The position numbers were made by a program, and so were the translations under genes. A stretch of 64,000 bases of DNA, taken from NCBI RefSeq assembly GCF_003334315.1, contig NZ_QOWR01000016.1. One strand, 5' to 3'. The notes below the pieces were generated by a model, which saw nothing but the letters and a program-made list of their open reading frames with translations, ran no database searches and had not been told where the DNA came from. Positions 45,268 through 47,241 of this stretch are shown piece by piece (within the stretch, counting starts at the first letter, position 1; every line of letters starts with the position of its first letter). The DNA comes from Escherichia coli (GTDB lineage: Bacteria; Pseudomonadota; Gammaproteobacteria; Enterobacterales; Enterobacteriaceae).

Positions 45268-46626
<1,359 letters not shown>

Positions 46627-46662
46627 TTAATTAACTGATGATGAGCCTGGATTTCCGCTCTC

Positions 46663-46701
46663 ACTGAATTTTTATGCAAAATAAATGAGTTTTCATTTAA
46701 T
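46663..46701 (-). promoter_or_regulatory. ArgR operator: two ARG boxes separated by 3 bp, upstream of argG
   Basis: acTGAATttttATgCAaa (46663-46680) and aaTGAgTtttcATTtAat (46684-46701) versus consensus wnTGAATwwwwATTCAnw. Confidence 0.6.
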
Positions 46702-46836
46702 CATCTTTTATCGGAGACAGGAAGAGTTTAGTGTGTTTTTTGTAAAATAATGCGCTTAAGGGAGAGCAGGAGAAGGCAAAAGTATTCAACAAATGAAAGT
46801 GAACTGGATATTCATTCACATGATTAGCAATAAACG

Positions 46837-46866
46837 TTGACAAAATGTGGCGTGGATCACTATAAT
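46837..46866 (+). promoter_or_regulatory. sigma70 promoter upstream of metY (-35 TTGACA, 18-bp spacer, -10 TATAAT)
   Basis: Perfect consensus hexamers TTGACA 46837-46842 and TATAAT 46861-46866. Confidence 0.5.
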
Positions 46867-46914
46867 GCCTGCAGATTTTACGTCCCGTCTCGGTACACCA
46901 AATCCCAGCAGTAT

Positions 46915-46943
46915 TTGCATTTTTTACCCAAAACGAGTAGAAT
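46915..46943 (+). promoter_or_regulatory. proximal metY promoter (-35 TTGCAT, 17-bp spacer, -10 TAGAAT)
   Basis: TTGCAT 46915-46920, TAGAAT 46938-46943, about 15 nt before the mature tRNA 5' end. Confidence 0.5.
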
Positions 46944-46958
46944 TTGCCACGTTTCAGG

Positions 46959-47035
<77 letters not shown>

Positions 47036-47157
47036 CTTTCCCTTAGAGTCCTTTTTCAAATATACTGTGAAGACTTCGGCCTTCGTAGTGGGATTTGAAA
47101 AAATCCTTCTGGAAAGTGCTCCAGACCGCAGTTGCGGTTATAGGGTTCAGTTATATA

Positions 47158-47183
47158 AAGCCCCGATTTATCGGGGTTTTTTG
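47158..47183 (+). terminator. intrinsic terminator downstream of metY (before rimP-nusA-infB)
   Basis: agccccga ttta tcgggg stem followed by ttttttg. Confidence 0.65.
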
Positions 47184-47241
47184 TTATCTGACTACAGAAT
47201 AACTGGGCTTTAGGCCCTTTTTTTATGTCTTGGGGGTGGGC

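Follow-up and report, generated by a model that had tools for sequence, protein, structure and literature searches.

The locus examined here lies within a 64,000-nucleotide stretch of E. coli chromosomal DNA (the window) and raises the question of whether two ARG-box-like sequences found upstream of the argG gene constitute the ArgR operator of that gene. At a coverage of at least 80%, the 701 bases surrounding the box pair were matched in 5,422 complete E. coli genomes, many of them being 100% identical, and the annotation beneath these matches was that of argG (argininosuccinate synthase) and tRNA-Met. The ATG of argG was located at position 46611 on the minus strand. The divergent metY gene is followed by rimP, nusA, and infB according to the transferred RefSeq annotation, and a rimP leader (Rfam RF01770, 102 bits) was seen between metY and rimP at 47124–47224. 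The argG–metY intergenic region (349 bp) is the same as that of K-12 MG1655 at every base, and therefore the findings made in K-12 apply directly here; positions 46701–46663 of the window are 3318689–3318727 in MG1655. The argR gene is outside the window; the K-12 annotation puts it at 3384703–3385173. The features of the control region are collected in Table 1.

Table 1. Features of the argG–metY region. Positions are those of the window; mismatches of the ARG boxes are counted against the consensus WNTGAATWWWWATTCANW.
Feature	Position	Strand	Sequence	Remarks
argG, argininosuccinate synthase (regulated gene)	45268–46611	minus		ORF list and RefSeq annotation, 100% identical DNA
Promoter-proximal ARG box	46663–46680	minus	TTTGCATAAAAATTCAGT (argG sense)	−69 to −52 from ATG; 1 mismatch to consensus
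Predicted −10 hexamer	46668–46673	minus	AAAAAT	17-bp spacer to ATGAAA
Spacer of 3 bp	46681–46683	minus	tat (argG sense)	Direct reading
Promoter-distal ARG box	46684–46701	minus	ATTAAATGAAAACTCATT (argG sense)	−90 to −73 from ATG; 3 mismatches
Predicted −35 hexamer	46691–46696	minus	ATGAAA	Part of the top-scoring sigma-70-like candidate within 230 nt 5' of argG
Conserved non-ARG block	46702–46726	minus	CTCTTCCTGTC-N6-AAAAGATG	Adjoins the distal box on its upstream side
Third, isolated ARG box	46803–46820		ACTGGATATTCATTCACA	2 mismatches; third-ranking position of the window, at 16.2 bits
metY promoter	46837–46866	+	TTGACA-18-TATAAT	12/12 consensus matches
CRP-like site	46846–46861		TGTGGCGTGGATCACT	2 mismatches to TGTGA-N6-TCACA; in the spacer of the metY promoter
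metY, initiator tRNA-fMet2, divergent from argG	46959–47035	+		ARAGORN, Rfam, and transferred annotation

The plus strand at positions 46663–46701 was read directly as ACTGAATTTTTATGCAAA ata AATGAGTTTTCATTTAAT. A preliminary description of this DNA had proposed two 18-bp ARG-box-like sequences, separated by 3 bp and lying 50–90 nt from the argG ATG. Both the boxes and their placement were borne out: the pair occupies the control region of an arginine-biosynthesis gene, 52–90 nt 5' of the ATG, and the centres of its boxes are 21 bp apart. According to the literature, the canonical ArgR operator consists of two 18-bp semi-palindromes spaced by 3 bp (2 bp in argR), the centres of which are two helical turns apart, and one arginine-loaded ArgR hexamer binds such a pair of boxes, 3 bp apart, cooperatively and on one face of the helix.

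For the scoring of the pair, we constructed a symmetrised weight matrix from nine other ArgR operators of MG1655 (carAB, argF, argI, argA, argD, argECBH, argR, artJ, and artP), with no argG information included. A scan of this kind had been suggested in the preliminary description, and in it the two boxes did not both fall below threshold: the proximal box scored 20.1 bits and the distal one 13.6 bits, ranking 1 and 4, respectively, among the ~64,000 positions of the window. Taken together at the 3-bp spacing, the boxes reached 33.7 bits and ranked 1 in the window, the runner-up pair having 25.6 bits. The nine reference operators scored 22.1–37.4 bits when each was left out of the matrix in turn, which places the argG pair within their range and in its upper half.

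The conservation of the pair was examined in species-representative genomes, which were scanned with a degenerate back-translation of a 12-residue ArgG motif. At least 120 loci were obtained in this way; the argG start of each was set from the conserved M(T/S)(T/N)IL sequence, and the DNA 5' of this start was then scanned with the matrix. In an alignment of eight Enterobacteriaceae, 74% of the positions of the pair were invariant (90% with one exception allowed) versus 13–22% in the flanks, the values for the proximal and distal boxes being 67% and 83%. In Citrobacter, Kluyvera, three Enterobacter lineages, Superficieibacter, and Pluralibacter, pairs with the 3-bp spacer scored 28–36 bits and occupied −120 to −49. 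Pairs farther from argG, also with the 3-bp spacer, were seen in Pectobacterium (−309), Tolumonas (−268), and Brenneria (−185). In Haemophilus and Rodentibacter, the pair was located at −63 to −24 and scored 34–39 bits; its letters are unlike those of E. coli, yet the consensus positions and the 3-bp spacing are kept. Of the other Enterobacterales among the matches listed, 10 of 12 had the pair, as did Tolumonas and, among the Pasteurellaceae whose upstream sequence was usable, 4 of 10; again among the matches listed, the 3-bp spacer was kept in all 14 of the other pair-bearing loci.

The matrix scan gave no scorable pair 5' of argG in Yersinia artesiana, Acerihabitans, and six Pasteurellaceae. 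No pair was detected, among the matches listed, in 94 control argG loci from beta- and alpha-proteobacteria, Acinetobacter, and Neisseria, where the maximum score was 14.3 bits and the median −13.4. Divergent E. coli strains showed a single substitution in the pair, at position 2 of the proximal box, which is a degenerate position. Part of this conservation could come from promoter elements instead of the operator. In Pectobacterium, Brenneria, and Tolumonas, the pair was seen 147–309 nt 5' of the argG ATG, and a pair so far out points to long leaders in these genera, or to further promoters downstream of it.

Single ARG-like boxes were also observed. E. coli has a weak one at 46739–46756 (9.9 bits), and Kluyvera has a strong one, TTTGAATAAAAATGCATG, at −135 to −118 (17.5 bits), which lies ~10 nt from the E. 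coli box in the alignment. Judging from these sequences, extra single ARG boxes seem to come and go among genera.

The promoter of argG was sought with a graded hexamer score using consensus frequencies, because a standard consensus promoter scan at a stricter threshold gave no promoter on the argG strand. The best candidate, ATGAAA-17-AAAAAT, is weak (7.8 bits) and lies wholly within the two ARG boxes. A candidate at the same place relative to the boxes ranked among the top four in all but one of the seven other genera. The exception is Kluyvera, where ATTAAA occupies the place of the −35 hexamer and the top candidate combines TTAAAA, located two bases farther downstream, with an identical −10 (AAAAAT). 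A promoter of this kind would start transcription near position 46661 and give a leader of ~50 nt. We rejected TGnTTAAAT (46703–46695) as an extended −10, since the essential A at −11 is absent, and TATTTT (46683–46678) as an alternative −10, since its −35 partners are all poor.

The literature describes ArgR as a poor roadblock. Operators of the biosynthetic genes are described as overlapping the −35 and/or −10 hexamers, and the binding of ArgR and of RNA polymerase as mutually exclusive. Going by the predicted promoter, the argG operator would likewise cover both hexamers, and since every alternative −10 considered falls within the boxes, promoter occlusion would hold for any choice of −10. 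When arginine is plentiful, ArgR bound over the −35 and −10 hexamers would exclude RNA polymerase, and the synthesis of argininosuccinate synthase would stop; when arginine falls, ArgR would leave and the transcription of argG would resume. With ArgR binding itself taken from the literature, we conclude with high confidence that the pair serves the E. coli argG promoter as its ArgR operator. The operator architecture proposed in the preliminary description is supported by the canonical design of the pair, its operator-like score, the presence of argG downstream, and the conservation of the pair across genera.

Other explanations of the boxes were weighed against this conclusion. They could be a functionless product of chance in AT-rich DNA, as the intergenic region has a G+C content of 37.5% and a consensus search allowing up to three mismatches gave 12 matches in the window against 6.5 expected, a count reached in 5 of 100 shuffles. 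The distal box alone is also within the range of shuffled sequence, its 13.6 bits being unremarkable beside the average of 14.2 bits for the best single box in the window shuffles. The pair, however, was not equalled by any shuffle. The best pairs in 200 dinucleotide-preserving shuffles of the whole window had a mean of 11.4 bits and a maximum of 19.1 bits, and the maximum in 20,000 composition-matched shuffles of the AT-rich intergenic region was 26.3 bits, so that 33.7 bits was reached in 0 of 200 and 0 of 20,000 cases. The significance of the pair thus comes from the combination of a strong proximal box with the exact 3-bp register. Moreover, both the pair and the distance between its boxes persist from genus to genus and from family to family, in DNA whose flanks diverge. 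The shuffles and the conservation together refute the origin by chance, to which we give practically no credence. Alternatively, the sequence could be conserved mainly as the core promoter of argG (−35, −10, and UP-like A/T tracts) or for recognition by another AT-binding protein (IHF, Lrp, or H-NS), the resemblance to ARG boxes being secondary. In favour of this, the predicted −35 and −10 are inside the boxes, and the spacer tat as well as AAAAGATG and CTCTTCCTGTC are also conserved, none of them being part of an ARG box. In spite of this, the boxes of Pasteurellaceae differ in sequence and keep the palindromic consensus positions and the 3-bp spacing, scoring 34–39 bits and thus above E. coli, a pattern that promoter conservation alone would not yield. 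Besides, the two roles are compatible, as overlap with the promoter is the normal design of ArgR operators, and we regard conservation for another role as very unlikely to be the main explanation.

It could also be proposed that the pair acts chiefly on the divergent metY–rimP–nusA–infB operon and not on argG, because the intergenic region is common to both and ArgR has been reported to affect metY. The pair, however, ends 52 nt from the argG ATG versus 136 bp from the −35 of metY, and it is the third, isolated box that lies near the metY promoter. Furthermore, the pair tracks argG in Pectobacterium, Brenneria, Haemophilus, and Rodentibacter, and a scan of 700 nt upstream detected no tRNA-fMet in these genera; the Tolumonas locus also carries the pair, and the upstream scan there covered 281 nt. 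Hence metY as the chief target is about as improbable as an origin by chance, and we retain the pair as the operator of argG.

The pair had also been offered in the preliminary description as a check on the orientation and start of argG. This is true only in a weak sense: the boxes are palindromic and directionless, and argG has the region in common with the divergent metY, so the pair says little about the start. The distance from the pair to the ATG is typical, yet it ranges from −24 to −309 across genera among the matches listed. Stronger support for the argG start comes from the RefSeq annotation, from the N-terminus M(T/S)(T/N)IL of ArgG, which is conserved in at least 120 homologues, and from the AAGCAGGG Shine-Dalgarno block, which is conserved in the alignment of Enterobacteriaceae.

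The third ARG box was overlooked in the preliminary description, in which two boxes had been seen. It is situated 119 bp from the distal box, centre to centre, and 17 bp from the −35 of metY, and the matrix scan gave no partner for it at 2–3 bp. In the alignment of eight Enterobacteriaceae, this box is specific to E. coli, with 0% of its positions invariant against the seven other genera, and some E. coli strains carry an A>G substitution at 46820. It is an E. coli-specific addition and probably connects ArgR with the control of metY. In E. coli strain VTB97074v, an IS21-family element was found inserted at ~46829, between the third box and the metY promoter; the insertion leaves argG and the box pair intact. 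A second promoter-like site, TTTGCA-18-TAGAAT, was noticed at 46914–46943, ending ~16 nt before the metY tRNA.

The argG gene is reportedly activated by CAP. A CRP-like site was found between the −35 and −10 hexamers of metY, a position that would fit the reported repression of metY by CAP. Since the CRP consensus is not enriched in the window (15 matches versus 28 expected), this site is put forward on its position and the literature only; it is not conserved in the other genera of the alignment. In PMC3017606, metY is described, with reference to Krin 2003, as down-regulated by cAMP-CAP and by ArgR. The arrangement of the third box and the CRP-like site fits the work of Krin et al. 2003 as cited there.

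The non-ARG block directly upstream of the distal box keeps a constant distance to it in genera from Escherichia to Pectobacterium and Brenneria, and the surrounding DNA diverges. The block was considered as a third adjacent ARG box and rejected, because the weight matrix gave it less than 4 bits. It may act as an UP-like element or bind another factor. A more speculative proposal, which we consider rather doubtful, is that the block is the site of an argG co-regulator or a contact for a third, otherwise unoccupied ArgR dimer and, separately, that the third ARG box loops to the pair and couples argG with metY. We know of no such co-regulator of argG. If this were true, the conserved control unit of argG would be larger than two ARG boxes.

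The argG operator is already known as a classical site of the arginine regulon that was mapped experimentally decades ago. The operator of K-12 is reportedly bound by ArgR, with repression of argG (Charlier et al. 1992, J Mol Biol 226:367; Krin et al. 2003, J Bacteriol 185:3139). Charlier et al. 1992 and the compilation of Maas 1994 reportedly list the pair as ATTAAATGAAAACTCATT tat TTTGCATAAAAATTCAGT together with a third box TGTGAATGAATATCCAGT. Our own literature searches on the argG promoter or operator and on the third ARG box returned nothing on E. coli. According to Cho 2015, ChIP-exo covered each of the 15 ArgR regions characterised earlier, in a passage that does not name argG. At the same locus and with the same intergenic sequence, there is no detectable difference between the operator described here and that of MG1655. 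The window carries an intact, K-12-identical argG control region, and the value of this lies mainly in annotation quality.

The runner-up pair in the window served for a further comparison. It reads TATGCATGAAATTTCGGT aat TTTGATTGATTATGCAGT, has 25.6 bits, and lies at 11061–11099, 5' of gltB. Upstream of this gene, an ArgR footprint at −361 to −318 was mapped by Paul et al. 2007 (PMC1784095), and the position of the pair suits this footprint if the transcription of gltB starts near 10737. A start there is suggested by the hexamers TTGACC and ATAAGT and by a CRP-like site. Because it is located where ArgR was footprinted, the gltB pair became an unplanned internal positive control, and a simple weight-matrix scan thus recovered both known ArgR operators of the 64-kb window, those of argG and gltB, as the top two. 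Like argG, the gltBDF site has two ARG boxes with a 3-bp spacer. Unlike that of argG, it is located ~320–360 bp 5' of the point where gltB transcription starts and gives only ~2-fold repression by interference with activation and not by promoter occlusion (PMC1784095). The argG pair also resembles the operators of argF, argI, carAB P2, argA, argD, argECBH, artJ, and artP, which likewise consist of two 18-bp imperfect palindromes with a 3-bp spacer and have comparable scores. Canonical operators overlap the promoter, as that of argG would according to its predicted promoter. The argG operator differs from them in its distal box, to which the best boxes of argF and argI are superior in strength, and in that an additional isolated third box lies 119 bp upstream.
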